From positions 1 through 32,425 of the forward strand of contig RBNJ01000348.1 in the NCBI GenBank assembly GCA_003990765.1: DNA of 32,425 bases, read 5' to 3'. Below are positions 504 through 31,727 of the stretch, one piece after another (the first letter of the stretch is position 1; each line of letters opens with the position of its first letter). The translations under genes and the position numbers were made by a program. The stretch comes from Jimgerdemannia flammicorona (taxonomy: Eukaryota). Below the pieces are notes generated by a model. The model did no database searches and was not told where the DNA came from. It worked only from the letters and a program-made list of their open reading frames with translations.

Positions 504-1045
504 AGTCTTTTGCCTGGAGGAATATCAGAGATAGTTGGATCAAGATATTGACAAATCCTAAGAATAATACAGCATATTTTACCATACACTTTACAATTAT
601 GGTAACTTATAGTATGTTGTCCTCTTCTTGGCTTTGGGGCTGGAGCTTGAGGAACTGGAGCTTGAGAGACCAGGGTCAGAGCTTGAGGGGCTGGAGCTTG
701 AGGGGCCAGGACTGGGGCTTGAGAGGTTAGGGCTGGGGCTTGAGGGGCCAGGGCTTGAGAGGCTGGGGCCAGGGCTTGAGAGACCAGAGCTTGAGAGGTT
801 GGGGCCAGAGCTTAAGGGCCAGCAGGGGCTTGGGCTTGGGGGCCAGCAGGGGCTTAAACTTGAGGACTAACAAGAGTATAGCTAGCTGAGATAAATCTCT
901 CAAGTGCTTTCTCTATTTTCTTTTTATTTTTCTTATAGTTTTCATTACTCTTGTCATCATTGTCATCATTTAGCCATTTGAAAACTTTGCTGATAGTCTC
1001 ATTCATTTCCTTGAAGTACTCAGACAAGTCTTCAAGATAACTTAT
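504..1045 (-). pseudogene. Decayed gene fragment of unknown function with a Pro/Ala repeat and a Cys-rich segment
   Basis: One minus-strand frame reads SYLEDLSEYFKEMNETISKVFKWLNDDNDD...(QAPAP)n...KPRRGQHTISYHNCKVYGKICCIILRICQYLDPTISDIPPGK, with two TAA stops at CAA/CGA-equivalent repeat positions. There is a minus-strand TATAAATA near 1170. Confidence 0.5.
628..870. repeat. Degenerate minisatellite (gggcttgaggggcca-type units) encoding QAPAP-like repeats on the minus strand
   Basis: Repeated ggg(g)cttgag(a/g)gg units are visible directly. Confidence 0.85.
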
Positions 1046-1199
1046 AGGGATAAATAGTGAAGGTAATTTTAAAATTTGTTGTTTATTTTTATTTTATTTT
1101 ATTTTTATTTTTATTTTATTTTATTTTTTATAGCTAGAAATGCAGACAGAAGTACAGCTTAGACAGCCTATTTATATATTTTTTATCTAATACTTAGAT

Positions 1200-1575
1200 T
1201 CAAATATGGTATGATACTGAGAGCTTCAAACATAGTAGTATAATACTGAGAGCTTCAAATATAGTAGTGATGATACAATGAGTTAATATAGAGAGCTTTA
1301 AATATAACAGTGATATAGTCAAGTCAGTGTAATACTGAGAGCTTTGAATATAGTAGTAATGTAGTGAGGTAATATAAAGAGCTTTGAAGTAGTAATACCA
1401 TCAGAAAGCTTTAGCAGATAGGTAGTTTCAATGGAGCCAATATGATATAGAGCAAGAGAGCTTCAAAGTGGTGATACCATTAGGAAGCTTTAGTAGTATC
1501 AATAGTATAAATAGGTAGCTTTAGTAGTGATGCAGTAAACCAATATAATGCAGACAAGCAAGCCAAGAGCTTGGA
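1200..1575. repeat. Degenerate repeat array with core gagagcttcaaa-tatagtagt
   Basis: About ten diverged copies of (ga)gagctt(c/t)(a/g)aa, followed by tagtagt/gtggtg. Confidence 0.65.
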
Positions 1576-1689
1576 ATATAGATACTTTGTTGTTCAGAAT
1601 TCCAATACAATGATTTGATATATATATATATTTGGTATTTTGAGAAATTATATTTTGAGATTATATTATATTTTGAGATTGAAATACTA

Positions 1690-3922
1690 GACTAATTGCT
1701 ATATCTTTAAATACATATATTTACAAATCATTTCAGAATCTAAAGTACCTCTTTTGGGTGTTACAAGATCTATACCATTTGAAAAAACCAGCTCAATTGG
1801 AGCACTTGTTGCTGGGATAGCTAAATAGTCATATGCTATTTTTACTAGATTTCAGAAATCTCTACTATGGCTCTAATGTTTCCAATAAATTGAATTAATT
1901 AGAAAAAACTTTCGAAATATATAGACCAAATTTGAATATGAAAGCCCAACTCACTTGTCACTATAATAATATATCAACTCCTAATTGAAATTTAATAATT
2001 TTACTTTTTAAATAAGCATCTACCTCTTGCTCAGAATTTGTTATCAATTTTTGTCTTTTGTTGCTATAAAATATATGTTCATTTAGTTTAGTAAGGATGT
2101 TATTATTATCTTCAATTATAGTATCAACATTGATGTTAACATCAACATTGGAAATTGTGCAATAAACTGATCCAAATAGAGTGATATAGTCTTTGTTATA
2201 GACTGTATAAAGTGTGTTTTCAGCCTCTTGAATCCAAATGTCTTCCCAACCATAAGATAAATAATATCCTAGTTTAATCCTGAGATCAAAAACTGGTTTT
2301 TATTCTAAAAAATAGATTTGTAGTGACCAACTGATCAAGCAAATTTCAAATTTCAAAACTGTTTTAGCACTAAGCAAATTTTGAAATAGATTTATCAAAA
2401 TATTTACTTATTAGTACTAATATAATAAAGACCATCTGTTATTGAATAACATATCTTTAACTTATCAATAGCTACTGTTATTGCCTGGTGAATAATTCCA
2501 TTGACTCTTCTATCTTTAGTATTCAAATATCTTTATCATTCTCCAACTTATCAGCAGATAGTTGTAAATTGGAATAGTCATATAAACTGTTATATATTTT
2601 TACTTAGCTGCAAGATCTGTTACCTTTTGAAAGTTCTTTAGAATTTTCATAATATCTTTTAGTATCTGCCAAGTATCATCTTTAATGATATATTTTCATA
2701 AATCTTTATCAGTCATAATTGTTGTAATTAAGGGCCATTAATAAAAATTAATTTATTAATAAATAAATTATTATAATATAAATTATAATATAATATAATA
2801 TAATATAATATAATATAAAACTTATCTCCAATAATTCTAAGGTCTGTTCAATTATAAAATATGTTAAATTCCACTGAGTCTTAACATCCAGAATAAGTTC
2901 TTTTAGATTGCTAATTTCAAAAGCTTTATATTATACTTTAAATTGATCAAGATGTTGTAGTGATAACTAGATCTTGATAATATTTATCTGGAGTTTTAAA
3001 GTTAGTTCTCTATCATCATCAGCCTTCATATAAACTAAAAAGGTCTGAGCAGCCAGATTAATAATATGAGACAGGCAGCAAATATGTTGTATTGACTGAT
3101 AAAGACTAATATCAAACTTCATTCCAATTGTTTAAAAAAATGTATTATTGTTAGATATATTGTCTATTGTTATAGCTAATATCTAGAGTAAAAGATCAAT
3201 AATTTGAAATATAAGTTTTTGAAAATTCTGACCTTTTTTGAAAATCTCATCCTTTTTCAAAAATCCTGTCCTTTTTTGAAAAATTCTGCCCTTTTTCAAA
3301 AAATCCCAAAAATTTCACTCTTTTTTGAAAATCCTGACCATCCTGACTTTTTTTTTTTTTTGACCTTTTTAAAATATACCTTTGTCTATATGCCAAAACT
3401 TCAAACATATCTTCCAAAGGCATCAGTAAGATTTTCACCTAAATGAGATCCTGATAGCTTGACAAAATCAATCAGCATACAGTTGAGTTATTAATTCTGA
3501 CAGATCTAATATGTATTAATTCCAAGAAATGCATACATATTTAGAGATATCTATATATCAATAGTGAAGGATATTTGACCTCATATATTCTATTTTCAAA
3601 TATAATAAAATTAATTTAAATAGATATTTAACTTGGAAATATTTGAATTAATATTCAATATCAAAATATTAGATCTTACTTATAGCATAATTTTGATAGC
3701 ATCATGCTTCTTTTAAAAGGCCAGTTTAATTTCATTTCATATAGTTCTAGTAGAAGGCATAATAATATCTAGTTTCAAAAGAGAAAAAAGATCTTTCAAC
3801 TCTGAATTCTCAATAAATATAAAAGGCTGACTATTACTGATAATATAGCAAATAAGCTTTTCTCAAAATAATGACATAGAGAATTTTGGCTATTTTGAAT
3901 ATTATAAAGTAATAATAAATTA

Positions 3923-4339: not shown

Positions 4340-4491
4340 TTTAGATTTGAATCGAATTGATTCAATTTGATTTGAATCAAATCAAATTGGACCTTAATTC
4401 AAATTAAATCAAATTGAATTGACTTTTGAATATTTTGAATTAAATCAAATTAGGGTCAAATTCAATTTGATTCAATTCATTAAGAGCACTA
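4340..4491 (-). mobile_element. hAT 5' terminus: TIR (minus strand TAGTGCTCTTAATGAA) plus subterminal gaatc/gattc repeats
   Basis: TAGTG-type hAT end with dense GAAT(C/T)(G/A)A pentamer repeats. D-LTR sequence resumes exactly at 4492. A similar terminus lies at 31259-31274. Confidence 0.75.
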
Positions 4492-4953
4492 ATTGAGATA
4501 ATAACTACTGATACAAGTACCAATCTGCATTCATATCTGACTACTTCAACTATAATAAAAAAACTAAAAAACACAATCTGTACCTCCAGACAACTCTTGA
4601 GATTGAATAAATAACTCCACTATCTAAGTATACATATATAATATAAAGAATAGCTATCAGCTTACTACAATCCAGCAATACATAGTACCATAATCTATAG
4701 AAGATATATAGTGTAATGGTGACCCCAGAATGATGACATCAGCACAGGAGACAGTCTTTTCTTATAAGTCACCAGATCAGAATACAAGAAGATCATATGG
4801 TATATGAGATGAGCAATGATGACCAACTATGAGTCATTGTGACCACAGTACAAGCATCCTGAAGAATATAAAAGAAGGATCAAGAAACTGCAGTAGCAGC
4901 AACCAATAAGAACCACCAATCCCAAATTAGCTCAAAGACTTACTATAAATGAA

Positions 4954-5790
4954 ATGCCTGCTGCCCACCAAACCTCAAGGTCAAGGAACCACCAAGGTAT
5001 CTTAGTTGAAGAAAGGATGTTCCAAGACATCAGAAGAGCCATGAGGACCTGCTCAAGAAGAACTCCTAGTGTCAATCTGAGTACTACAGACCCCTATCAC
5101 TTTATCCTCTACCACTGTGAAATGGAAACAAGGATCACCATTGCTACCGAATGCCTCCAAATGTGGCAGGAGTATGAAATAGGAAATCTTCTCTGCCGGG
5201 AGTTCCCACAGACCAGCACTCAAGAGCTACAAGATGCCACTCTCATGGATATACACAAAACAAGGACAGCTAAGAAGATCCATCAGATCTTCAGGCATGT
5301 ACCATAGTCGATTCCCAACTTGGAGTATGTTAGAGTCTCAGATTTCAGAGATCTGTCATCCCATCATATCAATGCACTAGAAGCCAGGGTGGCTACAGAA
5401 GCCCAGTCCACTATCACCCTCAATAGTGATGAAGTAGAAGACTTCTGGCACCCTATCCTCTAGGACAACCCAGACCAATTCCTGTAAGAGTTGATCTCAG
5501 TATTCCAAGGCCCTAGCATCTGGGTTAGATCTCCCTAAGACCCCACATTTGTCCCCTATTTTGTAGAAGAGAACCTCATAGACTGGAGAGCTCCAGATCT
5601 TATTCCCAATTTTCCCGCCATCAAATGTAATGATGTCATCAGCGATGACATCATCCTGCACAATATTGAAGTATATGAAACACATGAAGTATATGAAATG
5701 GATGACCTACATGACAAATTCATGGATCTCATCTCCTTCAGTGATGATAATGATGATGAAGCCCCCATAATCCTGAACTTTTTGCTCTAA
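4954..5790 (+). pseudogene. LTR-encoded ORF, 278 aa when reconstructed, unknown function with an acidic C-terminus
   Basis: Single frame MPAAHQTSRSRNHQ...DEAPIILNFLL* with four internal stops. Each is a sense codon (TGG, CAG, CAA, CAA) in the 3' LTR copy. Confidence 0.8.
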
Positions 5791-5948
5791 GTTCTTTATT
5801 AAACTGAATAATACCAGCACCAGTATTCTGATGTGATACTGAATTATACCAGCATCCTGAACCTGTACAACCATCAGTACCAACTCTAGAACTTAGTAGT
5901 TTTAATTATTGGAATTTATATTTAGCTTTATATCTTAATTATATTTTG

Positions 5949-5981
5949 TATAAATACCCCTCTTATTTCCTCTGAAATAAA
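5949..5981 (+). promoter_or_regulatory. Element B LTR TATA box (TATAAATA) and downstream AATAAA
   Basis: TATAAATACCCC at 5949 and AATAAA at 5976, both conserved in the 3' LTR. A similar TATAAATA(C/A)CCC occurs in the C LTR (22213) and D-family LTRs (16832, 30429). Confidence 0.6.
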
Positions 5982-6191
5982 GTCAATCTTCTCAGTGAAA
6001 TATACATACTTCCTTGCAAGCAATCTAAGAGATAACAAGACAGTTTAAAGATAAGAAGTTTGAGGACTATAAGACCTTGGGAAGGTACTCCAATAAGAAC
6101 TTGCTTATAACAAACTTGAGTTAGTCTAAGAGATATACCTTGAAGAGAATCTAGTATATTTGAAGGACTCAGTAACTACTATGTGACAACT

Positions 6192-6209
6192 TGGTACCCA
6201 TTGGCTGGT
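6192..6209 (+). promoter_or_regulatory. Element B primer-binding site (TGGTACCCATTGGCTGGT)
   Basis: TGG lies 3 nt after the LTR-terminal CA. The same sequence occurs in element C at 22438. The primer tRNA was not identified. Confidence 0.7.
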
Positions 6210-6308
6210 GATTCAAGATGAATCCCTCACTTTCAAGCTGAAAAACAAATAACCCCCACAACAACTATCCTGACTACAAGAGTCACCCCTGCAAGAATTC
6301 AAGACAAG

Positions 6309-8030
6309 ATGGAAATGCATCCCCCCACATTCTATAGATATACTACTGAAGAGTCAATCCTGACCTTCATTGAAGACTTTGAACAATTTGCTGCCATACA
6401 AGCCCTTGGTGTGGATGCTCAATTGGCCCTTCTACCAGTCAGCCTCAGAGGACCTGCCAGAGATAAGTTCAATGCAGCCACTATTGCTAATGCTGGTATA
6501 GCAAAACTTGCCAATATGAAGACCTTTCTCAGAACAATATATTATACTGAAGAGATCAAGTAAGCTCTCAAGGATCAACTCAATACTATCTGCCAGAGAC
6601 TTAGTGAAGATCCCAACTCATTCTATACCTGAATCTGCCACCAGATTATCTTGGCTAACTATAATGACTGCCTCAAGGAACAAATAGTAGATTCAACTTT
6701 CCTTAAAGAAGTTTACCCTGAAATTGCCCTAGCAATCTGGTCTATCCCAGCTGCACTGACCCTTGATCAGAAAGTGGTCTTTGCACAGAGATATTGGACT
6801 GCCAGACACTTTGCCGAATACTCAATGGAGAAAATAACTGGCATCAAGATGGAGCTATCAAAGCCAACTAGTATCTTACCTGCCATAGTTGTAAACAGAC
6901 AACCAACCCCACCTACCCCCAAGACAGCCAAAGCTGACCCAGTGGAAGAACTTGCCAAGCAGTTTGCTGAGATGACTGTACACCTTAGTGATATTGTTAA
7001 AGAAGTCCAAAGCACCAACAGGAGACCAGTGCAGAGATTTGCAGCTGCTACAGAAGAACACAATATCACATGCTTCAGATGTAGAGAAGAAGGCCACTAT
7101 GCAAAGAATTGCATGACTGAAACAAGATGCAAAGTCCAACCAAGCAATGCTAGCAGAACTAGAGAACAAACTAATGCAGTAGTCATTGAGGAGATTGGTG
7201 ACACTGATGATGAAGAATACTATGAGGAGCTTGAATTCTACTCTGCTACTGAAGGTACCAGAACCCAGTCCAAGCTCTATGATAAGAAGAGCAACAGCAA
7301 GCCAGTTGGAAGACCAAAGAAGACTCCAGCCATCACTATTCAAAGTAAGACCCAATCTGAGGAGATTGATCAAGACATGAAGTTAGATAAAGCTGCCCAT
7401 CAAATTATTGAAGGCACTACTCCAGTCTCAGGAGAAAGCAAAAGTAAGAAGGAACAGAAGCTGTGCAAGACCAAGATCCATCAGTATGACATCTACAAGG
7501 ACCTCAAGGAACAGAAGGTCAATGCTACTTTTGGACAACTAGCTGAAGTCTCTGCCTTCAGACAGCAGTTGAGAGTAGGACTTGTAACTACTGCTAAGAA
7601 TCAAGAGTACAAGATTGTAGAAGCTCACAATACACAGGAAGAATCTGAGAACTCAGGTGAAGAATCCAAAGACCAGTACAAGACATTAGCCTATACCCCA
7701 TGTCAGATCAAAGATTGTATCTTTGATGCTATCATTGATACTAGTGCTGGAGGATACCTCATGAGTAAGAAGGCAATTGACTGCCTAGGCTGGGATATTG
7801 AAGAGTCTACCAAGATATGAGCTACCCTACTTGGCAAAATCCGAGAAGTCCCCATCAAGATAGAAGGAGCTACCATCCCAGTAGACATGATTGTTACAAG
7901 TGCCACCAACTATGACATCCTCATTGGCAACCAATAGCTTCACAAGGCCAAGGCCATCATTGACCTCAATGCCCAGAAGATGCAGATCAATTATAGAGGA
8001 AGAAAGTTATGAGTCTCTATTAATGTCTAC
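6309..8030 (+). pseudogene. gag: Element B gag (capsid-like, CCHC knuckle) and aspartic protease in one frame
   Basis: Zinc knuckle CFRCREEGHYAKNC; protease motifs AIIDTSAG (DTG-type) and YDILIGN. Several in-frame stops. Confidence 0.9.
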
Positions 8031-8129
8031 AAAGGAGTTCTACCAGATATGGAGGAAGGAGATGAAGAAGACACAGAGGTCTTCATACACTTGGTGAACA
8101 AGAACAAGAATAAGACATCCAAGCTCACA

Positions 8130-8237
8130 GATGAGCAGTAGTATAACAAAATTATCAATGACTATGTCCCTCAAGGAAGATGTCTCTATGGTACTAGAAT
8201 GTACTGCTCTGAACACCTGAATAACTGCTGGTCCTAT
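8130..8237 (+). other. Element B small Cys/His module (putative zinc finger)
   Basis: DEQ*YNKIINDYVPQGRCLYGTRMYCSEHLNNCWSY, homologous to 24346-24450 and 18156-18263. Confidence 0.7.
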
Positions 8238-8377
8238 ATTAGTGAAGTAGGAAAATCTGCCAACAGAAATACAAACAAGAAGCTGCTGAAGCAAAAAGGA
8301 AAGCTGATGAAGATGATCAGCCCCCAGAGCTCCAAGCTGACAGTAATGATAAGGAGGAACAAGAATCAGACATCACC

Positions 8378-8788
8378 CTCAAGGTCAAGAAGTTTCACCC
8401 CAAAGCCAAGATCCCAGAATATAAGACTGAAGGAGCCATAGAAATGGACCTTGCCAGCATTCAAGATACTACCCTTGAACCACAGACCACCACTCTACTT
8501 GGCACTGGAATTGGAGTCAAGCTGCCAGAGAACCATGCCAGAATTATCAAGACTAGAAGCAGTCTGGCCAAAAGTGAAATCTCAGTTGAAGGAGGAGTAA
8601 TTGACCCTGATTACACTGGTGAGATCTTTCTCATAGTCAGAAATCACAACTACACCACCCCCTTCGAAGTCAAGAAGTATGACAGGATTGGCCAGATGCT
8701 GATCCATGAAATCAAGAAGCCCAAGATCATTGAAGCCATTAAACACATCAAGACCAAGAGAGGAGAACAAGGCTTTGGATCTACTGGA
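8378..8788 (+). pseudogene. dut: Element B dUTPase domain (between PR and RT)
   Basis: Trimeric dUTPase motifs MDL, TRSSLA, GGVIDPDYTGEI, RIGQML and RGEQGFGSTG. Confidence 0.95.
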
Positions 8789-8979
8789 AGAGGAGTCTAT
8801 GCTGCTACCAAGATTACCGAACTTGAGCACAAGAAAGACAAGAACCAGAACAAGCACACATATACCATTGGAGAAAACTTTCCCCTGGAGAAACAACTTC
8901 TCAAGATCCTGTACCAGAATAAAGAAGTACTTGCTACAGACTTCAGGGATATCCACAATCAAGAATCCAAGTACTACCA

Positions 8980-10309
8980 TGAAGTTGATACTGGCAATAC
9001 TAAGCCCATCTACTAGAAAGCCAGACCTATACCACCTGCCTACAGAGAGTGGCTGTGAGCAGAACTCAAGGAAATGGAAGAAGCTGGGATCATCAAGCAA
9101 GCTATCAGCCCCTGGACCTCACCCATTGTCCTTGCCTCAAAGAAAGGAAGCAAGCCTAGAGAGTTTGCACCAAGACTCTGTATTGACTATAGAAAGCTCA
9201 ATACCATCACTAAGAAGGATAGGCAGCCCTTGCCAAATATTCAAGAAATTCTTACTACTCTTGGAAGTGAAGCCAAATACTACACCACCTTGGATCTGTT
9301 CTCAGGCTTCCATCAGATTGGTCTCACTCAAGATGCCAGTGAGAAATCAGCCTTCATCACACCTGATGCCACCTATATCTACCTGCGAATGCTATTTGGA
9401 ATGTGCAATGCCCTAGCAAGTTTTCAGTAAATGATGAACAGAGTCTTCAGCAACAAGATTGGAAAATGGCTCTTTGTCTATGTTGATGATGTGATCATCT
9501 TCAGTAATACTGTATGGAAACATATCAATCACATACAGCTAGCCCTCAAGAAGCTCAAAGAGCATGGCCTCTATATCAAGCCCAAAAAATGCAAGTTTGT
9601 AGCTCAAGAAATCACCTACCTAGGACACCTTATCAACCAGACTGGAATCTACACAGATCCCATAAAGATCGAGGCTGTTGCAGCCTACCCAAGACCCAGA
9701 ACAACTATAGAAGTCCACGCCTTCCTTGGACTGGCTAGCTACTACAGAAAATTCATCAAAGGATACTACAACATTACAGCACCTATCTATGAGCTACTGA
9801 AGAAGGAGACTAAATTCAAATGGACCAAGGAGTACCAAGAAACCTTCAATGAACTCAAGATCAGGTTGATCCAAGCACCTATCCTCAGAAGACCAGACTA
9901 GAACCTAGAATTCATCCTGCAGACAGACATGAGTGCTATAGGACTTGGAGCAGTCCCAGCTCAGAAGAAAGATAGACATGAATATGTCATCTCCTATGCA
10001 AGCCAAGGTACCTGCAGAGCAGAACAGAACTATGAGTCATGCAAGCTTGAATGCTTAGCAGTAGTTTGGGCAGTAGACAAGTTCCACTACTACCTAGCTG
10101 GGAAACACTTCACTATTCAAACAGACCACTCTGCTCTTGCCTGGCTATTCCACACTCTAAACCCCAAAGGAATATATGCCAGATAGATCTACAGGCTGCA
10201 AGAGTATGACTGTACTGTCAAGCACTGCTCAGGAAAGACCAATACCAATGCTGATGCACTCTTAAGGACACCCCAAAACACCCACATCAAGACTATTCAA
10301 CATGAATAA
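8980..10309 (+). pseudogene. pol: Element B reverse transcriptase and RNase H
   Basis: SPWTSPIVL, RLCIDYRKLN, LDLFSGFHQI, YVDD, FLGLASYYRKF, FILQTD, KLECLAVVWAV, TDHSAL and NADAL. The frame ends at TAA 10307-10309. Confidence 0.95.
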
Positions 10310-11400
10310 GAAGCTATACTATGGATTAATCAGCTATCTTAGACAGCAGAAGATGCCCAACCACCTCAAACCCTGGACAATCACCATCATCAACCAGACT
10401 TGGAAACAGTTTGAACTAGACAACACTATACTCAGAAAAGGAGGAAAGCTAGTAATACTCAAATACAAGAAGTATCAAGTAATGAAGGAAGTACATGAGC
10501 AAGGATACTTAGGAGAAACCAATATATATGATAAGGCAAGAAGAACTATGTGGTGGTCCAAGATAGAAGAAGACCTACACCAATTTGTCAAAGGGTGTGA
10601 CAAGTGCCAAAAACAGAAACAAGATCAGCAAGACCAGATACCCAGGTCATCAAGAATTGAGCCTATCCCCTTCCACCACATTGCAATGGATATCATTGGA
10701 CCACTACCAGTAACACTATCAGGAAACAGCTATATCATAGTTATTGTAGACCTCTTCACCAAATAGATAGAGGCAGGAGCATTACAAGAAGCCAATGCCC
10801 TCTCTATAGCCAACTCCTGCACTGAGAAATCATCTGCCACTACAAGATCCAGCACATCAAGACCACTGTGTACCACCCTCAAGGAAATGGACAGAAAGAG
10901 AGAACCAACAAGACCCTCAAGAACATTCTAGTAAAGATCTCAGAGACATATGAGAATTGGGATAACTATCTCCCAACTACCCTCTCTGTCCTATGAGACA
11001 TATGGTCACAGAGCACACACTTTACCCCAAGAGAGCTGCTCTTCGGAGAAGAAGATTCTGATGGAACCTCAGCCACGAATCTAGACCTAACTTGGAGATA
11101 GGTTGATGCAAAAATCCAGAGACTACACCAAATCAGGAAGAAGGCTGAAGATTACATCACCAAGTTACAAGCACTGATAAGGAAGAATGCAGAAAAGAAT
11201 CATAAGGCCCTAGAACCCATCCAAATCAGAGAAAAAGTTCTACTATATTGAAATATGGTAGAAACCTCATGGTCATGAAAACTGGAGCCCAAATGGGAAG
11301 GTGCAAGATATCAAGAGAACCACCTTCTGGCTTAGAAAAATCTCAGGAACTATACTGCCTACTACAGTATATAGGAACAGACTCAAGAAGTACTACAAAC
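10302..11400 (+). pseudogene. Element B integrase (separate +1 frame, internal deletion)
   Basis: HHCC-type region (VHEQG...CDKCQ), IAMDIIGPLP, YHPQGNGQ.ERTNKTLK and KLEPKWEG. Confidence 0.9.
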
Positions 11401-11772
11401 CTATACAAGAGAAGCAAAACATGATGACTACCCATGAGGTTCTAGTCTGCGAATCATAACAGCATGTCCTGTGACTAGCAGGCTATCTGTCTGGACCATT
11501 CTCTAAGAGATATGATACTGGCAACTACTCATCTGTGAGACTTTCAAAGTCAGAGGAGTTCAAACCATCAACTGATTGGTCAAGATCAGAATCAGGCCCT
11601 TGCTCTATATGAAGGGAGTGACCCTTCACCATTACACCAAAATACAAAGAGAAGATACCAGCCCATAAATACCACTTTTTGACTCCTTGCCAGAGGTTAT
11701 GAGATCAGCAAATTTTTCAGGACTGGACCAATGAATAAGAATACTTAAGAAGATCCTTATTTAGGAAGAAGA

Positions 11773-13318
11773 TGTAATGGTAATCCCAGAATGATGACAT
11801 CAGCACAGGAGACAGTCTTTCCTTATAAGCCACCAGATCAAAATACAAGAAGATCATATAGTATATAAGATGAGCAATGATGACCAACTATGAGTCATTG
11901 TGACCACAGTACAAGCATCCTGAAGAATATAAAAGAAGAATCAAGGAACCACAGTAGCAGCAACCAACAAGAACTACCAATCCCAAATTAGCTCAAAGAC
12001 TTACCACAAATGAAATGCCTGCTGCCTACCAAACCTCAAGGTCAAGGAACTACTAAGATATCTTAGTCGAAGAAAGGATATTCCAAGACATCAGAAGAGC
12101 TATAAGGACCCACTCAAGAAGGACTCCTAGTGTTAACCTGGGTACTGCAGACCCCTATCACTTTATTCTCTACTACTATGAAATAGAAACAAGGATCATC
12201 ATTGCTACCGAATATCTCCAAATGTGGCAGGAGTATGAAATAGGAAACCTCCTCTGCCGGGAGTTCCCACAGGCCAGCACTCATGAGCTACAAGATGCCA
12301 CTCCCATGGATATAGATAGCTAAGAAGATCCATCAGATCTTCAGGCATGCACCATGGTTGATTTCCAACTTGGAGTATGTTAGAGTCTCAGATTTCAGAG
12401 ATCTGTCATTCTGCTATATCAATGCACTAGAAGCCAGGGTGACTACAGAAGCCCAGTCCACTATCACCCTCAAAGTGATAAAGTAGAAAACTTCTGGCAC
12501 TCTATCTTTCAGGATAACCCAGACCAATTCCTGCAAGGGTTGATCTCAGTATTCCAAGGCCCAAACATCCAGATTAGATCTCTCCAAGACCCCACATTTG
12601 TTCTCTATTTTGTAGAAGAGAACCTCATAGACTGGAGAGCTCCAGATCTTGTTCCTGATTTCCCCACCGCCAAACATAATGATGTCATTGATGATGACAT
12701 CATCCCATGTGACATCAAAGCATGCAAAATACACAAAGTACACAAAATGGGCAACCTATATGATGAATTCACAGATCTCATCTCTTTCAGTAATGATGAT
12801 GATGATGAAGACCCCATAATCCTGAACTTTCTGCTCTAAGTTCTTTGTTAAACTGAATAATACCAGTACCAGTATTTTGACATAACACTGGATAATTCCA
12901 GCACTGGTATTCTGAGGTGATGTGAAATTATTCCAGCACTGGTATTCTGATGTGACACTGAATTATACCAGCATCCTGAACCTGTACAACCATCAGTGCT
13001 GACCCTGGAACTTAGTAGTTTTAGTTATTAGAATTTATATTTAGCTTTATATCTTAGCAACCATTGAATTATATTTTATATAAATACCCCTCTTATTTCC
13101 TCTGAAATAAAGTCAGTCTTCTCAGTGCAATATACATACTTTCTTGCAAGCAATCTAAGAGATAACAAGACAGTTTAAAGATAAGAAGTTTGAGGACTAT
13201 AAGACCTTGGGAAGGCACTCCAATAAGAACTTGCTTATAATAAACTTGAGTTAGTCTAAGAGATATACCTTGAAGAGAATCTGGCATATTTGAAGGACTC
13301 AGTGACCACTATATAACA
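11773..13318 (+). repeat. Element B 3' LTR (1546 bp) including a second copy of the LTR ORF (12015-12839)
   Basis: Preceded by the PPT, with TG...CA ends. Carries two extra copies of a ~35-bp repeat relative to the 5' LTR. Confidence 0.95.
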
Positions 13319-14221
13319 GCAGATAGTGAATTTGATAAAAGCAAAGATAATATATCTCTTCTTTGCCCACCAACTCTATATCTAGCATATAAGATAGATG
13401 ATATCCTATAGGATAGTAATATAGTCTCAATGTATTATTATCAGAGTAAATAAGGAGAAGTAATCCAAGAACTACTCTTCCTAGATAACTACTTTATCAG
13501 AGATAATATCATTGATAGTAATATCATTAAAGACTATCTAGACAGTATCTAAATCTATAGATAGCTTAGCAGTTATTAGTATAATTAGATTAGCCTTATA
13601 TAATGTGACTGTATACTAACTCAGCAGTTAGACAATCTCTTAATATGTCAGTTTATACTTATACTATATGACTGCATTCTGACTCAGCAAGGTACTAAGT
13701 ACTATATCTATATTAATATAGTCTAGATAGTATAAATATCCCCTCTCCCAGATCTCAGAATCTCAGGCTTAAACAATTGAAATATAACTCCTGAACACTT
13801 CTCCACAATATCTCTTCATATAACTACTCCTAGTATAGCAATATCATGAATAGCAAATAAATCTATTTAATAACTTACAAACTACTCTTAAGTAAATCCA
13901 CACTCTATTAGATCCCACTCTTAACCATATTATGAAATTTCCTAATTGGGTATTGTCTGCAGTGATACATCAATTCAACTAAGCTGATCTTAGTTTCTTA
14001 AACTTCTTAAAATATAGAAAATCCTGAACATCCAGAACTAGTTCAAAAAAGGACTTTGGTTGAGATATTAATCCAATCTTGAAATCAATAAGTATAGAGG
14101 ATATACTCTATATAAAATTGATCTTGACCTAAAGAAAACAGTCTTCTAGAATATTCAGAACTTTTAGAAAACTCTTCCAGAACTACATAATAGTACTTTT
14201 ATAAGTAACCCTCTTACAACT

Positions 14222-14235
14222 TGGTAGTGGTGGTT
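14222..14235 (+). promoter_or_regulatory. Element D primer-binding site (TGGTAGTGGTGG)
   Basis: TGG lies 3 nt after the LTR end. TGGTAG(C/T) is compatible with initiator-Met-type priming, but this was not verified. Confidence 0.6.
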
Positions 14236-15167
14236 TATAATTCAATTCCGCTTCAAGATGCTTCCTCACTCTGCTATAAATCTCTATAAGAATTCCTACA
14301 AATTGGTATAAAGCCTAACCTTTAAACTGAAATTTATCCTGAACTATCTGACAATCTGGAGAGAATTGAACCTGACATATAAGGACAACTTAACCTTCAC
14401 ACCTGTAACAAGTGGAACAGACTTTATCTATAAAAAGAAGTACTCTAATTAAGCCAGTAGATAGATGAAACTTTATATACTGAACTCCTTGCTCTACATC
14501 CTGTAAGTCAAGATGAAAAAGGTCTTATAGAAGCCTTCTTTACTCTTCTCAACAAGAGTTTTGTTAGCTCTACAAACTTGAGTAACCTAGGATAACCAGC
14601 AGTAGTCTTTTTAGCCTTAGTTCCTCATAAAGTCCAAGCCTCTATAGCCAAGTGGCTCAACTTTACTGACTTTCACCATACAAGAACTAAGACTGCCTTA
14701 TACTACTGCTTCCAGAATTATAAGGCTCACTATATTCTTAAAGAGAAATCCTTTATCAATAATTCAACTCTGAATCAAAAGCAGGTTCAGCTACAGTCCT
14801 ACTTGAAAATAAAACCAATACTGAACTGAAACCAGATTTTGAATTAAGTCCATCTAAAATCCAATATACAACTGATTCTATTTACTTCAATGCTAAGTAA
14901 ACTCAACTACATGAGGACCAAAGCCAAGAGAAGGAGGAGTATCTTAGTGAATTTGATTCTGGATATACTACTGAGAGAGATACACCTCCATTAGGACAAA
15001 ATATATCTATACAGCAATAGACAGCTATCTACCAAGCCCTTACTTCAAACTCATAACAGTTATGTTAGCAACTTATACAGACTCAAAGAACACTATCATA
15101 CTCTACACTAATATCTCAAGTTATACCAGTAATACTACTACTAGTAATCCAACTACCTCTAGTGAAC

Positions 15168-17650
15168 ATGGCAAACTAATATATTCTAGACCTCACAGCC
15201 CAGGTAGCCATAATGGTAGCAACCATTACTGCCTTAGCTGAACAGACCCAACTAACAAAAAGTCTGAGTCTACCTACCTTCAATGGTACTGTATAAGAAG
15301 TCCAAAGCTTTATTAATATAGTTGATACTAATTTTTGAAGCCAACCAATAGACTAATGAGTGAGTTGCTGACTATCTTCTGATAAACAATTAAGACCATA
15401 CTCTACAATAACTCTTTACTACTACTATAGTCTATGTCTATTAAGTTATTATATTCTTCTGAAGATCTGCCAAAGAATGGTAGCAAACTCTTTCTAAAAA
15501 ACTCCTCACATAGGACATCTGACCTATAGTCATTGCCCAAAATGTAGCAAATAATGCCCCAGAATATAAAAACTATCCTGCAGCCCCTGGACTCAAATAA
15601 CTCATAATTGCTCAATACTACAGTAAAACTCTATAATCTCAAATTTAATATATATAGTAAGAAGAAATTCAAAACCTTCTATAAAAAACTTGAGTCACTC
15701 CTGAATACTATTGGTCTAGAATATATTACTAATGATAAAGCATAAAATGGTATAAAAGTAGATTATTTATTTGATACATTATCTGAATAGCTTATAAGAA
15801 AAATCTGAGAACAAGAATGCCTAGTTGTAAGCACACAATCTCCAAGCTACCAAAATCACATGTCATCCTCAGAACTAATTTGGAAACCACATGCAAGACT
15901 ACAAAACAAGTTACTGAAGAGATTATCTGATTATACAAAATATGCTAGCAAATATGAGAATCTACCACCAAGATACAAAAATACCAGAAGAAGTATTACA
16001 ACTATAAGACCAACTCTGAACCTCTATAACTAGTTTAGTATACTATACTATTACAAAAGGAAACCAAAAGTACCAAACTCAAACCAAGATAAGAAGGACC
16101 CTATCTCATCCATCAAGAGTTTATGAACTACACTTATCAAACTCTAGACCAAGATATACTGCAACTATACAAGACCTCATTACTTAGCAGAAGCAAAACA
16201 CATTTGAACAACTCTGTTTGCTCTATATATATCACCTCTATTGGAGAGTGACAGATGCTTCATCTGAACTCAAGAAAGCCGACATTGTTGAAACCAATCT
16301 CAAGCCATCCATGTAATAGATATTACTACTAGAAATTGTCTCAGATTACAGAAAATATCATTTCTGAGAGGTTCAAACCCCTAGCTGTGACATTGGGAGC
16401 CCTTGCCCTAGACAAGGATGACCAGTCCTTGCAAATATACCAGCAGGCCAAAAAAAAAAAGAGAACCAAGACCTGTTATCCTTATACAACCACTGCTACC
16501 AAGAACAGCCTTAATCTTGCAAGAGATAGAAGTGACAATACCTTGAAACTGATGATGTCAGAAGTCAGAAAACTGCTCAGACTTTGCTAGTGATGATGTC
16601 ATCAATAGTGATATCATCAAAGACTAACCAGATAGCACCTAAATCTATAAATAGCTTAGCAGTCATAGTATAGTTAGATTAGCCTTATATGATATGACTA
16701 TGAACTGACTCAGCAGTCAGATAATCCCTTGACATGTCAGATCACACTTGTACTATATGACTGCATTCCAACTCAGCAAAGTACTAAGTATTACATCCAT
16801 ATTCAGCATAGTCCAGATAGCCCCTCACTAGTATAAATACCCCCTCCCCCAGACCTCAGAATCTAAGACTTGAACAGACTTGAATATACAAGAACATTCC
16901 TAAATACTTCCCCACAATATCCCTTCACACAACTACTCCTAGTATAGCAATATTATGAATAGCAAATAAACCTATTTAATAATCTACAAATCACTCTTAA
17001 ATAAATCCACTCTCCATTAGATCTCACTCCTAATCCCATTATGAAATTTCCTAATTGGGTATTGTCTGCAGTGATATGCTAATTAAACTAAGCTGGTCTT
17101 AGTTTCTTGAACTTCCTGAAATATGGAAAATCCTGAACATCCAGAACTAGTCCAAAAAAGGACTTTGGTTGAGACATCAACCTGAACTTGAAATCAATAA
17201 GCATAGAGGACATACTCTATATGAAATTGATCTTGACTATAAGAAAACAGTCTTTCAGAATATCCAGAACTTCCAGAAAACCCTTCCAGAACTACATAAC
17301 AGTTACTCTAAAAAGTAACCTTCTTACACTAGTTGGTTGTGATCACCAATAATAGTACCTAGCAAGAATCAAAACTATGGTCAAGTGAATTCTATCAGCT
17401 GGACCAATTCTGTCTTGAAGACAATTCAACAATAAGGAAAAGACTTAGACAAAGAAAAAAAAACCCAAGCATGAAGCATCCCAAGCTCCCTCCACATCTA
17501 CCTCTTGAATATCTCAAAATCCTGAACTTACTCAGCTAAGTACCTTCAAGAAACTCACTGAAGGAGAAAGAAATGAACTTTATAGAAGTAGAGTATACTT
17601 CTATTGCTGAAAAACAGGATATATGACCAGTGTCTACTCTAATCAAAAAC
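15168..17650 (+). pseudogene. gag: Element D gag, interrupted by the solo LTR at 15826-17328
   Basis: LPTFNGT..EV..FI at ~15270. Decayed knuckle LTEGERNEL.RS..YFYC*KTGYM.SVY. at ~17554-17640. Confidence 0.7.
15826..17328 (+). mobile_element. Solo LTR of a D-related family with a 5-bp TSD (CTAGT)
   Basis: TGTAAG...CTTACA ends, CTAGT at 15821-15825 and 17329-17333. The first ~90 bp and last ~740 bp match the D LTR. Confidence 0.9.
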
Positions 17651-17711
17651 TCTGAACAGCAATACAAGCAACTGTTACTACTCTGTATTATCTCAACAAT
17701 CTGACTACTAA

Positions 17712-18125
17712 AATACTAGACTTGTCAAGTTAAGGTCAACTGCCAAGACCCCAATCAAAGAAAGTCAAAAAGCAGCTAGATATGACCTATATATAGCCAA
17801 AGAAGCTACAGTTTCCAACTGAGAAGTTAAGCCAGTCTATATAGGAATCAGCATTCAAATTCCTGAAGAATATGTTAGAAGGATATGCTATTACAGCAGC
17901 CTAGTACTAAAAGAACTCTCAGTAGAAGGAGGAGTTATTGATAAAGATTATATAGGTGAAATTATTGTCCTTATTCAAAACTATAGTTGAACACTCTTCA
18001 AGATCCCCATTGGTTTCTGTACTACTCAGATCCTATTTGAGAAAATTGAACCAACTCTGATAGTCAAAGAAGTCTCTGAACTACTACTTACCATCCAAGA
18101 ATCTAAAGGATTTGGCTCATCAAAT
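17712..18125 (+). pseudogene. dut: Element D dUTPase domain (between gag and PR)
   Basis: AARYDLY, YSSLVLK (RSSLA), VEGGVIDKDYIGEII, TQIL and KGFGSSN in one frame. Confidence 0.9.
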
Positions 18126-18155
18126 AAGGCCTCAGCCCAATCTACTATGAATAAA

Positions 18156-18263
18156 GAAGAACAATTCTACAAGAAAATTAAAGATGGATTTGTACCAAGT
18201 AGCTAATACCCCCATAGTGTTAGAATGTACTCTTCCTGAATAATCAATAATTGCTTCTCTTGT
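18156..18263 (+). other. Element D small Cys/His module (putative zinc finger)
   Basis: EEQFYKKIKDGFVPSS*YPHSVRMYSS*IINNCFSC, in frame with the dUTPase. Confidence 0.7.
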
Positions 18264-18339
18264 GTCAATGGACTGGTTCAAAGGAGAACCAATAGAAGGA
18301 AAACTCCTATAACTGAAATTACTACTATTAGATCAGACA

Positions 18340-21300: not shown

Positions 21301-21750
21301 GTATATTAACCAGTACTGCTAAGAAGAAACTTTTGATATCAAAAAAAATAGTTCTACTAGACATCCAAGGATACTGAGTTGATAACTTCAAGCACAGACT
21401 ATCTATGAAGCTAAATAGCAAATTCATCAGACCATTTGAAGTCATCATACAAGTCTCTCCAACTTTCTACAAATTAGTGCTACCAGACACTATTAAGATT
21501 CACCCAGTCTTCAATGTTCAATATCTTAAACAATATAATGAAAATGATAATAAACTATTTCAAATCTGAATCACAAAACCACCTATATCTATTATTATTA
21601 ATGACTAAGAAGAATACAAAGTTAAACAAATATGGCTACAAAAACTATTTAGAATATCTTATCAAATTGAAAGGTTATTCAATCTATAATATGACATGAG
21701 AACCCAAGACCAATCTATAGAATGCTACTGAACTAGTTCAAGAATATAAT
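18340..21750 (+). pseudogene. pol: Element D pol: protease, RT, RNase H, integrase and chromodomain
   Basis: IMIDSSISGNFI; GFIRPSVSLYSVPVLF..KKGGDL; YIDDILVFS (~19434); ISMDFI; KFIRPFEV...IHPVFNVQYLK. Chromodomain EEYKVKQI...EYLIKLKGY....T*EP.TNL.NA (~21605-21750). Confidence 0.9.
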
Positions 21751-21962
21751 TCTTTGAACAACTGAAATCTGAACACTTCAGTACCTATTGGTCAATATTA
21801 TATACTACTACTCCTGAATATTAAGTACTCTTATAATTATTATAAACAAAATCAAGAACTCAGTAAGATAAGACAAAAGAATACCAACTCTCTAGAAAAA
21901 TAGCAAAACTAAAAGTCAGCCTATTCTTCCCATATTACTAATGAGAAATGAGGCATAGATAT

Positions 21963-22434
21963 TGTGACAGTATAGCCAGATTCGGAAGAAGGAAATAGGG
22001 AACAGACACTTGATTACACCCAGTCTCAAAGTAGTATAGCCACATAGTTAGCAGTCTCTGATTTTGCCATTTGCTAAATATTTTGCAAAGTGCAAGATCG
22101 AGCCTCTTGATATAGTATAGTATTTCACAACTGGTGAAATATTTCACAAAGTGTTAAATGACTCATAATTTAGCCACGTAACCCAGTAACCATCTCATAG
22201 CTAGCAAACTTATATAAATAACCCAGTATCTTTGAGTGAATAAAACCTCAGATCGAAATAGTTCAAAGCAAAGAGATAGCAAAGGAACTAGTACATAAGC
22301 CTGCAGGCAGATATACTTCGAACTCACCCACCCTCCCCTACAACTTCAAGAGACTCTGCAAGAGTCAGAACAGTCAAGTTTTCAAGATATAGAAATCTGA
22401 TATACTTTCAAGAGTAAGCATCCACTATGTTACA
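21963..22434 (+). repeat. Element C 5' LTR (472 bp)
   Basis: TGTGACAG...atgttaCA. Direct repeat of 28193-28638. Confidence 0.95.
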
Positions 22435-22548
22435 ACTTAGTGCCCATTGGCTGGTAATTCAAGATGAATTCCTCACTTTCAAGCTGAATAACAAACAACT
22501 GCCACTACCCAAACAACCATACAAACTGAGCCCCAATACCCAGACAAG

Positions 22549-27717: not shown

Positions 27718-28170
27718 ATGGTACTCAAGATCACTAATGCTGCCCAAAGAGCCATTGAGAGACAATGGTGCACCACCGAGCCTCCAACCATAGAGGAGTC
27801 CTATGACAGTATCCAAAGCATCGTGCAGACTCATCTCTCTCAGATCTCACACTTCAAGGCCTATTAGCATTAAAATGAATTCCAAGAGTACTTCAAACTT
27901 AGCCAAGTACTCAACTAAGACCCAGAAATGACCAAAGAAAACTGGATCACAGAATACCAGCTCTCCTATTCCCAGATTACCATTGCTAAGAGAATCCACA
28001 AGCTATTCTGAGAAGATGAACCTGCACTATCCCACCTGTGAGGAGTGACTCCCTCAGACTTTGACTGAGTCAGGCGACACCATTGGGAAACAGTAATGTA
28101 ACAAATTGCACAATACAAGACCATATAGACCATTGAAGCCTGGGAGTTTGAATAGATGCTTCAGGGATGA
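27718..28170 (+). pseudogene. Element C possible extra ORF between integrase and PPT
   Basis: MVLKITNAAQRAIERQW...IAKRIHKLF*EDEPALSHL*GVTPSDF reads in one frame but has nine internal stops. Confidence 0.5.
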
Positions 28171-28192
28171 GATTATCTATTCAGGAGGAAGT

Positions 28193-31663: not shown

Positions 31664-31665
<2 letters not shown>

Positions 31666-31726
<61 letters not shown>
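31666..31726. repeat. Poly-T tract (61 nt)
   Basis: Direct observation. Confidence 0.95.

Positions 31727-31727
<1 letters not shown>

Follow-up and report, generated by a model that had tools for sequence, protein, structure and literature searches.

The open reading frame (ORF) at positions 4954–5790 of the window (the whole stretch of 32,425 nucleotides analyzed here) is best explained, at a probability of roughly 70%, as a dead copy of a selection-maintained accessory gene of ~270–340 amino acids that resides inside the U3 region of a dUTPase-bearing Ty3/gypsy lineage. In LTR retrotransposons, accessory genes usually lie in the internal region, and genes located in an LTR are oddities of a few retroviruses, such as MMTV sag and nef, which overlaps U3. 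A search of full texts that did not extend to subscription journals or supplements yielded no account of a protein ORF carried in the LTR of a non-retroviral LTR retrotransposon, and PMC10787394 and a Blumeria preprint contained nothing relevant on LTR ORFs.

The frame is part of element B (4712–13321), a dead Ty3/gypsy retrotransposon with gag, dUTPase, reverse transcriptase (RT), RNase H, and integrase; the features described here lie on the forward strand. Its direct LTRs occupy 4712–6191 (5′ LTR, 1480 bp, TG...ACAACT, ending in CT instead of CA) and 11773–13321 (3′ LTR). Their boundaries were set by the flanking repeat D, the empty-site paralogue at 30013–30020, and the target-site duplication (G)ATAG, of which a left remnant, ATAG (4708–4711), matches both GATAG on the right (13322–13326) and the uninterrupted paralogue (30016–30020). 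The two LTRs are 90.5% identical over 1466 columns. LTR pairs differ nearly exclusively by transitions; classical RIP was considered and rejected, as its indices do not fit (TpA/ApT 0.75–1.11; (CpA+TpG)/(ApC+GpT) 1.10–1.54).

A primer-binding site (PBS)-like sequence, TGGTACCCATTGGCTGG (6192–6208), lies immediately 3′ of the 5′ LTR and is conserved in the related element C as TAGTGCCCATTGGCTGG, and a polypurine tract (PPT), AGGAAGAAGA (11763–11772), abuts the 3′ LTR and is homologous to AGGAGGAAG, which precedes 28192 in element C; contigs of the sequencing runs X1 and X6 read ...AGGAGGAAGA ahead of 4712. The gag region (6222–7820) comprises a leader frame (6222–6563) and a frame at 6633–7820 with a CCHC knuckle (Pfam zf-CCHC, E 1.9e-5). 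It is followed by a broken pol (8246–11460) containing dUTPase (within 8246–9016; Pfam, 1.4e-25), RT (9059–9901; RVT_1, 6.4e-13 and 3.2e-10), RNase H (9902–10186; RT_RNaseH, 6.1e-29), an integrase zinc domain (10266–10766; Integrase_H2C2, 2.6e-13), and core remnants. The assignment to Ty3/gypsy rests on the two direct LTRs with their target-site duplication, on the domain order zf-CCHC, dUTPase, RVT_1, RT_RNaseH, Integrase_H2C2, and on the PBS and PPT; Pfam detected neither a protease nor a chromodomain in element B. The nearest named relative of its RT is glomeromycotan and just 45% identical, and the host is probably a soil fungus. Scans of the window for tRNAs and Rfam families returned nothing.

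The 5′ LTR copy of the ORF (4954–5790) consists of 278 codons and a terminal TAA, and it is interrupted by exactly four internal stops, each attributable to a transition: TAG at 5305 (codon 118) and 5461 (codon 170), and TAA at 5485 (codon 178) and 5536 (codon 195). The aligned codons of the 3′ LTR are TGG, CAG, CAA, and CAA, encoding tryptophan or glutamine. The only in-register lesions of the 3′ copy (12015–12839), which hmmsearch recovers as three frame pieces, are a CAA-to-TAA change at codon 14 (12054), an 11-nt deletion at codons 101–104, and a 1-nt deletion at codon 157. At the five codons that carry a stop in one copy or the other, the homologues P0002/P0003, introduced below, carry Q, W, Q, Q, and Q. 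Because the lesions of the two copies do not overlap, the ORF is shown, at the level of sequence, to have been intact when element B inserted, both copies having decayed later through transitions and small deletions. The first-pass annotation had described a single frame with four stops that are all sense codons in the 3′ LTR, 3′ lesions (one TAA, an 11-nt and a 1-nt deletion) missing from the 5′ copy, and an ORF intact at insertion, and the alignment bears out all of this. Differences between the copies are distributed 40/28/33 over the three codon positions, a pattern that fits neutral decay since the insertion. Five stops fall in the ORF frame, compared with 10–29 in the five other frames, and only 11 of 20,000 mononucleotide shuffles of the window ORF had four stops or fewer.

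Intact natural homologues of 247–342 amino acids are present in public metagenome assemblies. At E ≤ 0.01, 6 of 181 candidates qualified, with intact frames and coverage of up to 100%; these six clusters correspond to 16 member sequences, two of 323 amino acids among them, and since they stem from gene callers that report open frames only, broken copies are under-sampled in this set. A profile search against 1.84 billion representatives likewise gave six matches, four of them with E ≤ 1e-30. Identity to the 5′ LTR ORF ranges from 47 to 84% for the intact homologues P0002–P0007, and intact family members as a whole span 29–84% identity with conserved motifs, P0022 being a solid remote member. 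Relatives were found neither in viral_contigs nor in genome_contigs, and fused forms of 600–2000 amino acids were not found in the family, an absence that the tool itself flags as weak evidence.

The search of metagenome_contigs yielded one locus out of 537 pattern matches. This contig, L001, is the sole external DNA locus that could be read; it starts at the TATA box and stops within U5, so that the LTR ends lie outside it. L001 carries an open frame of 323 codons, a length that remained open in 0 of 20,000 shuffles, and its layout is the same as in the window: GAATATAAAAG, ATG, ORF, TGTATAAATACCCC, AATAAA. Comparison of the window ORF with L001 gave a dN/dS of ~0.22 overall and 0.10 in the core (codons 60–215), NG86 estimates for which dS is saturated (pS 0.65–0.73) and which transition-biased mutation may distort. 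Differences between the subfamilies are distributed 96/66/130 over the codon positions, with an excess at the third. The dN/dS comparison, which the first-pass annotation had proposed, indicates purifying selection between subfamilies, and neither of the signs against a gene that it had named, family-wide stops or frameshifts and a lack of such selection, was observed. Within what sequence comparison can establish, the LTR ORF is shown to be a real gene of a conserved family under purifying selection between subfamilies.

The position of this gene relative to the LTR signals is central to its interpretation. A TATA-like box, TATAAAAG (4867–4874), is present in both LTR copies and represents a candidate promoter of the ORF. 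L001 carries the 11-nt core of this box, GAATATAAAAG, unchanged, and the stretch from the core to the ATG has diverged, with a 21-nt gap. A perfect palindrome, ATGAGTCAT (4829–4837), lies 30 nt upstream of TATAAAAG and presumably resembles an AP-1/Gcn4-type bZIP site. The corresponding pattern, ATGA(G/C)TCAT, occurs five times in the window versus 0.84 times expected (0 of 100 shuffles reach five), and four of the five occurrences fall in the four LTRs of elements B and C. The predicted main LTR promoter box, TATAAATA (5949–5956), with the U3/R border placed shortly downstream, is conserved as TGTATAAATACCCC in element B and L001 and as TATAAATAACCC in element C, ~225–240 nt from the LTR end. 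A polyadenylation-signal-like hexamer, AATAAA (5976–5981), follows ~27 nt past the main TATA box and would be the likely poly(A) signal; GTGAATAAA occupies the aligned position in L001 and element C.

The first base of the ORF is 242 nt into the LTR, and the whole frame falls between the start of the LTR (4712) and the conserved main TATA box (5949). Because the TATAAATA(C/A)CCC plus AATAAA module downstream of it is common to L001 and to the ORF-less LTR of element C, the ORF is, by predicted promoter position, wholly within U3. Two points made at first pass can be placed here: an upstream TATAAAAG at 4867, before the ATG and apart from the main TATAAATA at 5949, is confirmed in both starts, and the duplication of the gene at each insertion together with its persistence in solo LTRs would follow from the location in U3.

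Element C provides a view of the history of the family. Its internal region shares just ~72–80% nucleotide identity with that of element B, and its LTR is ~480 bp long and contains no ORF; the LTR of element B is ~1 kb longer, and the two align only at their ends and in the promoter-proximal part. The earlier statement that element C lacks the gene, which would make the gene a dispensable add-on, therefore holds for the LTR but not for the element as a whole, as a relic of the N-terminal domain lies upstream of the 3′ LTR. This relic (27856–28119), between the integrase and the PPT/3′ LTR, is decayed and remotely homologous to the N-terminal domain of the LTR-ORF family by hhalign (probabilities of 82.6%, E 9.6e-6, and 77.0%, E 2.1e-5; other frames ≤0.14%) and by hmmsearch (8.7 bits, reached by 0 of 60 shuffled six-frame sets, whose maximum was 0.6). 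Its frame crosses the PPT and reaches the first few bases of the LTR. The internal stretch of element B at 11301–11772 contains no homologue of the LTR ORF, and only the relic of element C lies, in sense orientation, after pol and before the 3′ LTR. Given that the relic is internal in element C, the gene family seems to predate the B-type LTR and to have changed place with respect to the PPT/LTR boundary. A relic of an old PPT and LTR start at the 3′ end of the ORF in L001 or element B was also considered and was not significant against shuffles, which matched as well in 374 of 1000 cases for the C junction versus L001, in 52 of 1000 for the B junction versus L001, and in 992 and 839 of 1000 versus the LTR of element B.

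The protein product is characterized by a basic N-terminus (net charge of 0 to +7 over the first 50 residues), a helical core, and an acidic tail (charge of −15 to −27; 21–36% D+E). The annotator of the first pass did not recognize the protein, and the searches conducted here were likewise without a match: a Pfam search with the X-read ORF gave 0 families at E ≤ 10, a PDB sequence profile search 0 matches at E ≤ 10, and Foldseek against the PDB, with AlphaFold2 models, nothing at E ≤ 0.001 (best E 0.41). The two AlphaFold2 models have mean pLDDT values of 51.4 and 59.3 and share the helical core. A wide structure search with VIA reached a best Z of 5.0, under the noise level that the tool states for helical models. 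In the ESM Atlas, the best score for P0003 was 0.83, with no family and an Atlas model pLDDT of 0.35; P0022 scored 0.92 to unnamed clusters, with just 143–153 of 256 features in common, and the named rows for it (Translat_reg, DUF6192, DUF3102, DUF1016_N) scored ≤0.90 and are leads only. The Pfam family ATG5_HBR, hit by 4 of 17 members (best E 0.028), was dismissed as noise. The ORF is unrelated to the gag and leader frame of element B itself (hhalign probabilities of 0.04% and 0.19%). None of the seven members tested contains a transmembrane segment (maximum 19-residue KD hydropathy ≤1.05).

Taken as a model, the product would consist of a basic N-terminus, a helical domain of ~130 residues (roughly residues 20–155), and a disordered acidic-hydrophobic tail with an LNF(L/R)L end. 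Putative LIR-like (EEFWNPIL), SIM-like, and LxxLL-like (LNFLL) motifs, picked out by eye, are not invariant across the family. The protein is predicted to be soluble and intracellular, probably nuclear; given two models of low confidence, the lack of a matching fold is a weak finding. On composition, we tentatively propose as its most likely role that of a regulatory or adaptor factor acting in trans for the element, which might, for instance, activate transcription from the LTR or bind a factor of the host.

Based on these data, a simple model would suggest that each LTR, whether 5′, 3′, or solo, forms a self-contained unit of ~1.1 kb, in which transcription would run from the upstream TATAAAAG, with the bZIP-like palindrome lying 30 nt ahead of this box, and end at the poly(A) signal of that LTR. 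We give this arrangement somewhat better than even odds. In addition or instead, the ORF could be the 3′-terminal cistron of the genomic RNA and be reached by splicing, as in MMTV sag or HIV nef. A stricter version of the latter, in which the gene is real but without a promoter of its own, is expressed only from the 3′ LTR as the last genomic cistron via a spliced subgenomic mRNA, and contains TATAAAAG as an enhancer or incidental U3 motif, is the strongest competitor, although we regard it as possible rather than likely. It would account for the 3′-terminal position of the ORF on the genomic RNA, for the pyrimidine-rich tract with a following AG (TCTTTTCTTATAAG, 4757–4770) that lies past the LTR start and ahead of the ATG, and for the relic in element C, which begins directly after pol and leaves no room for a promoter. 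It does not readily explain why GAATATAAAAG is letter-for-letter the same in element B and L001 with a diverged 3′ flank, or why a perfect bZIP-like palindrome precedes TATAAAAG as one of the same kind precedes the main TATA box of element C.

Alternatively, the upstream TATAAAAG would be the true genomic promoter and the ORF the first cistron in a very long R/U5 leader, comparable to the Ogre-type ORF1 upstream of gag. The TATA and palindrome module before the ORF does resemble the main promoter module of element C. However, TGTATAAATACCCC plus AATAAA, located ~230 nt from the LTR end in element B, L001, and the ORF-less element C, marks a shared genomic promoter, and an R region of ~1.1 kb would be far beyond the norm for LTR elements; we consider this arrangement unlikely. 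Sequencing runs bear on it marginally. Part of the stretch is present in 20 runs, none listed as RNA, with a best share of words of 0.29. Contigs of X10 and X17, for which an RNA type is a guess, cover the LTR; a word depth of 558–3492 in the LTR is seen in X10, compared with ~0–2 in the internal region apart from one bin at 184.7, and in the DNA-type runs X1 and X6 the LTR is merely ~2.5–3.5 times deeper than the interior. That the contigs of two runs with guessed RNA type begin near 4917–4924 is a weak hint in favor of a long leader, but the X10 depth upstream of 4887 equals that of the ORF. Contigs of X10 exit the LTR ends into unrelated sequence, which would fit solo LTRs, another element, or read-through. 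The runs were read as contigs, in which neither RNA ends nor strand are displayed, and they hence have no bearing on expression.

Another origin to be weighed is capture: the ORF would be a fragment of a host gene picked up by transduction, or foreign DNA inserted as a nested unit, that became fixed in the LTR of one subfamily in the manner of Bs1 and has no role for the element. Such an event is suggested by the additional ~1 kb of the B LTR, which aligns with that of element C only at the ends and in the promoter-proximal part, yet it is improbable in view of the family as a whole. The gene is open and under purifying selection across subfamilies that are 29–84% identical, a distant homologue sits at the pol–LTR junction of element C, and the six clusters among 1.84 billion representatives reveal no larger cellular family. 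Longer fused forms were not found either. Moreover, transduced genes occur in one or few copies, according to the part of PMC7264820 consulted. Finally, although both window copies are broken, a chance open stretch, or one conserved merely as cis-acting U3 DNA, is very improbable given the shuffle results for the window (11 of 20,000) and for L001 (0 of 20,000), the third-position excess with dN/dS of 0.10–0.22, and intact homologues with conserved motifs down to 29% identity.

Returning to the reading of an accessory gene in U3, a more speculative and rather doubtful extension would treat the LTR as an autonomous cassette. All LTRs, including solo LTRs, would express the family-specific trans-acting protein from a stress-responsive promoter with a bZIP site, boosting the transcription or replication of all related copies or disarming a host factor that silences them. 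The protein would be a "public good" that scales with LTR copy number and outlives the coding elements, and the shift from the pol–LTR spacer into U3 would have been an adaptive step that doubled the dose and uncoupled the gene from the genomic RNA.

If a conserved protein gene does lie wholly in the LTR of a non-retroviral, probably fungal, gypsy element, this architecture arose independently outside the retroviruses. Solo LTRs could then be protein-coding, possibly self-transcribed, and masking them as non-coding repeats would be unwarranted. Element B and L001 on one hand and element C on the other constitute a natural pair with one gene family on either side of the PPT/LTR boundary, so that the way in which genes enter U3 can be tested directly. 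The function of an orphan protein without a matching fold likewise becomes a tractable problem.

Comparison with known systems places the gene between several precedents. LTR retrotransposons of plants and fungi carry additional ORFs (aORFs), among them the env-like ORFs of Athila and Bagy2 and the antisense ORFs of Grande, RIRE2, Retand, and Boty, as reviewed in PMC7264820. As described there, aORFs resemble the LTR ORF in being family-specific orphans that are kept in most copies and have no cellular homologue, and the relic of element C occupies the typical sense site between pol and the 3′ LTR; aORFs are, however, placed in the internal region there, in contrast to the LTR location in element B and L001, and the text contained no wording for LTR-located ORFs. 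Ty3/gypsy elements bearing dUTPase are described, in the sections seen, from the fungi Postia, Phanerochaete, and Tuber (PMC2864245) and from bdelloid rotifers as Juno, Vesta, and TelKA (PMC5408684), the rotifer elements bearing varied extra ORF3s; in those sections the extra ORFs are internal, and an LTR-borne ORF is unmentioned. The shared feature is dUTPase between protease and RT, as in elements B and C.

In the Cassandra TRIM, each LTR harbors a gene for 5S rRNA that is driven by a pol III promoter of its own. The likeness is that of an independent transcription unit in the LTR, present in two copies per insertion and remaining in solo LTRs, but the cargo of Cassandra derives from the cell, is non-coding, and is transcribed by pol III, whereas the LTR ORF encodes a protein and has signals of the pol II type. 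Among retroviruses, the PPT and U3 are overlapped by nef in HIV/SIV and by bel/tas/bet in foamy viruses, and the latter also combine an internal promoter with an acidic-tailed transactivator. These genes are similar in being accessory genes at the pol-distal end that overlap or enter U3, as does the relic frame of element C in crossing the PPT into the LTR; the gene of element B differs in lying wholly inside the LTR, not just overlapping it, and has no homology to them. By analogy with foamy Tas, the LTR ORF, with its candidate second promoter and a C-terminal tail that is acidic and hydrophobic, may be likened to such a transactivator system. The sag gene of mouse mammary tumor virus is a superantigen ORF in the U3 of the LTR, for which the name "LTR-ORF" is in use in the literature. 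Like the LTR ORF, it is a complete ORF of ~300 codons in the U3 of an unusually long LTR (1.3–1.5 kb), occurs in both LTRs, occupies the 3′ terminus of the genomic RNA, and is accessory and outside gag–pol. The LTR ORF has no similarity to it in sequence or fold and, with no transmembrane segment, is not a type II membrane protein, and its host, element B, is a probably fungal Ty3/gypsy retrotransposon without env.

Element B is a Ty3/gypsy retrotransposon whose limits (4712–13321, forward strand) were set by self-comparison of the window and Pfam scans. Its LTRs (4712–6191 and 11773–13321, same strand) are identical in 1327 of 1466 aligned columns and are bordered internally by a PBS-like TGGTACCCATTGGCTGG at 6192 and the PPT AGGAAGAAGA at 11763–11772, both also on the forward strand. 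Between them lie gag with a CCHC knuckle, dUTPase, RT, RNase H, and integrase, in this order and every one broken. B is inserted in another repeat (D) with flanks at 4481–4707 and 13322–14218; an uninterrupted copy at 29789–30892 represents the empty site, with (G)ATAG as the TSD. Repeat family D, with a further copy at 16589–17328, is unclassified, and its copies are 81–84% identical. No ORF of at least 90 aa is present within 13300–22000.

Element C, a related retrotransposon with LTRs of only ~480 bp (21962–22438 and 28192–28637, forward strand, by self-comparison), carries the domain set of B, dUTPase included, with an internal identity to B of only ~72–80%. The available text of two reports places a dUTPase between PR and RT in fungal gypsy elements (PMC2864245) and in bdelloid rotifer elements (PMC5408684). 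The best named relative of the C RT is from Entrophospora sp. (Glomeromycota; 45% identity, E 6.5e-93), compared with ~40% and around 1e-50 for animal elements; the top match overall (70%) is a metagenome protein with dUTPase and RT. Sequencing runs containing parts of the B LTR are mostly soil metagenomes. A soil fungus is therefore the probable host. At the left edge of the window, a GC-richer stretch holds a third-element fragment (1–502), 92% identical to the gag region of C at 22627–23128; near the right edge (31590–32363) lie two short-tandem-repeat blocks of period ~9–13 nt in very AT-rich DNA.

Translated, the frame at 4954–5790 in the 5' LTR of B yields 278 residues and is interrupted at four codons: 118 (TAG), 170 (TAG), 178 (TAA), and 195 (TAA). 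In a codon-by-codon walk of the LTR alignment, the 3' copy (12015–12839) reads TGG, CAG, CAA, and CAA at these codons and has only lesions of its own: codon 14 reads TAA, 11 nt are deleted at codons 101–104, and 1 nt is missing from codon 157. The copies have no lesion in common, and because both LTRs were copied from one template, the ORF was open when B inserted. The first-pass annotation had read the two sets of lesions as private to their copies and the ORF as intact at insertion, and the alignment confirms it in each respect. The frame contains five stops including the terminal one, against 10–29 in the other five frames, and shuffling of the window's ORF left four or fewer in 11 of 20,000 trials. 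In both copies of B, a second ATG 5 nt upstream of the start (ATGAAATG, 4949–5005) begins an overlapping frame of 18 codons; this ATG is missing from L001, a metagenome contig with an open relative of the ORF.

Each of the four stops in the 5' copy is a change of the CpA-to-TpA type, and transitions account for 135 of the 139 substitutions in the B LTR pair and for all 29 in the C pair. Per-site rates from the LTR pairs are 0.34 for CpA, 0.43 for CpG, 0.21 for CpC, and 0.05 for CpT, and CpG observed/expected is 0.01–0.20 throughout the window. Candidate processes are editing, methylation outside CpG, or a system resembling RIP; the window falls short of the indices of classical RIP. Differences between the two ORF copies are distributed 40/28/33 over codon positions with a pN/pS of 0.59, which has the appearance of neutral decay under almost purely transitional mutation. 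Divergence of the LTR pair is 12.2% in the ORF part, compared with 6.2% before and 5.5% after it, and the stretch 5620–5720 is particularly rich in TG/CA to TA changes. The 3' LTR has 70 extra nt downstream of the ORF (12903–12972; tandem CCAGCACTGGTATTCTGA... units). The 5' LTR lacks 11 nt (AGCAACCATTG) at 5936/5937, just upstream of the main TATA, that are present in the 3' LTR and in contigs of sequencing runs X6, X10, and X17.

Selection on the ORF is visible among its relatives. Searching with the X-read ORF recovered 6 homologues among 181 candidates, in clusters totaling 16 sequences, and a profile run against 1.84 billion representatives recovered 6 clusters, of which 4 reached E ≤ 1e-30. 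The members come from metagenome gene callers, which report open frames only; their frames are intact, reach 342 aa, and show identities of 29–84%. Shared motifs are an MPA/MPP start, W(Q/H)EYEIG, HQIFRHAPW, FWNPILQDNPDQFL, FQGP, PYFVEENLIDWR, and a terminal LNF(L/R)L. L001 (1345 nt), the sole outside DNA copy compared, has an open frame of 323 codons, whereas none of 20,000 shuffles stayed open. Between the 5' copy and L001, differences by codon position are 96/66/130, and NG86 gives pN 0.27, pS 0.65, and a dN/dS of 0.22, falling to 0.10 over codons 60–215, with dS saturated in this comparison. The annotation had held that stops or frameshifts across the family, or a lack of purifying selection between subfamilies, would speak against a gene; the intact homologues, the open L001 frame, and both dN/dS values point the other way.

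Two TATA motifs lie on the forward strand where the annotation had placed them, a candidate for the ORF (TATAAAAG, starting at 4867) and that of the main LTR promoter (TATAAATA, starting at 5949). The start of L001 has the same GAATATAAAAG as B; the 60–85 nt from there to the ATG have diverged, with a 21-nt gap, and the start context AAATGCCTGC is conserved. Downstream of the stop codon, B and L001 share TGTATAAATACCCC followed by AATAAA within ~27 nt, and the ORF-less LTR of C has a matching module (TATATAAATAACCC, GTGAATAAA) about as far from its end. Judged by its conservation, this common module most plausibly represents the genomic promoter, with a poly(A) signal where U3 meets R, which would place the ORF in U3. 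We put the probability that the ORF is a selection-maintained gene located in U3 at roughly 0.85–0.9.

The perfect palindrome ATGA(G/C)TCAT, which resembles an AP-1/Gcn4-type bZIP site, occurs five times in the window (0.84 expected), four of them within the four LTRs of B and C (4829, 11890, 22158, and 28388; the fifth is at 10032). It precedes the TATA of the ORF by 30 nt in B and the main TATA by ~50 nt in C. Taken together, the upstream TATA, the palindrome, and the shared module suggest that a self-contained unit of ~1.1 kb lies in the B LTR, running from a promoter through the ORF to the shared poly(A) signal. A separate promoter for the ORF is plausible, from which transcription would run to the shared poly(A) signal. 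Alternatively, or in addition, the protein could be expressed from a spliced subgenomic RNA of the 3' LTR copy. In the small runs X10 and X17, guessed to be RNA, word depth within 4400–11700 is very high over the LTR, and the interior is hardly covered; their contigs pass from LTR ends into unrelated sequence.

The predicted protein has no transmembrane segment (maximum 19-residue hydropathy ≤1.05 in all seven members tested). Its first 50 residues carry a net charge of 0 to +7, and the tail after a conserved WR carries −15 to −27, with 21–36% D+E. AlphaFold2 models of two homologues, P0003 and P0018 (17-row alignment each), agree on a ~130-aa helical domain, modeled with moderate local confidence, and on an unstructured remainder after it, with mean pLDDT of only 51 and 59. 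No fold or family match rose above noise in Pfam, PDB sequence, Atlas, VIA, or Foldseek, nor was a relation to the element's gag found. From composition, a nuclear regulatory or adaptor protein would fit the basic N terminus, helical core, and acidic-hydrophobic tail, a role we regard as doubtful. The reading as a whole, with the unit and this role so weighted, is likely, though less secure than the gene itself.

Across the window, tblastn finds the family in the two LTRs of B only. Profile methods do detect the N-terminal domain in C, as a decayed and distant homologue that lies, in the same orientation, between the integrase end and the PPT (27856–28119, forward strand; hmmsearch 8.7 bits, reached by none of 60 shuffled six-frame sets, maximum 0.6). 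Hhalign gives 82.6% probability (E 9.6e-6, family columns 72–153) and 77.0% (columns 18–153), against at most 0.14% in the other frames. P0022, the weakest match of the profile search, is a solid remote member with the same domain (96.4%). The annotation's view that C lacks the gene holds for its LTR but not for its interior. Because the PPT and first LTR bases are homologous between B and C, the gene lies on the downstream side of this boundary in B and on its upstream side in C. Rather than an add-on absent from C, the family has the look of an old ORF3 that has shifted, within this lineage, relative to the LTR boundary. The relic frame in C crosses the PPT and ends at a TGA in the first LTR bases. 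Looking at the end of the ORF for remains of an earlier PPT/LTR start, as a trace of a move, gave no significant match.

Additional ORFs of plant and fungal elements are described in the internal region, and the phrases for an LTR location that were looked for do not occur in the available text of that source (PMC7264820). Full-text searches of openly accessible main texts returned no case of a protein ORF carried in the LTR of a non-retroviral LTR retrotransposon. The finding, a conserved orphan gene in a retrotransposon LTR that is dead in the B copy, is real and moderately interesting. Among retroviruses, U3 is overlapped by HIV nef and by the bel genes of foamy viruses, and the long LTR of MMTV contains a complete ORF, sag, within U3. 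The ORF of B is homologous to none of them, and its protein lacks the membrane anchor that is a hallmark of Sag; by position, MMTV sag is its closest known counterpart.
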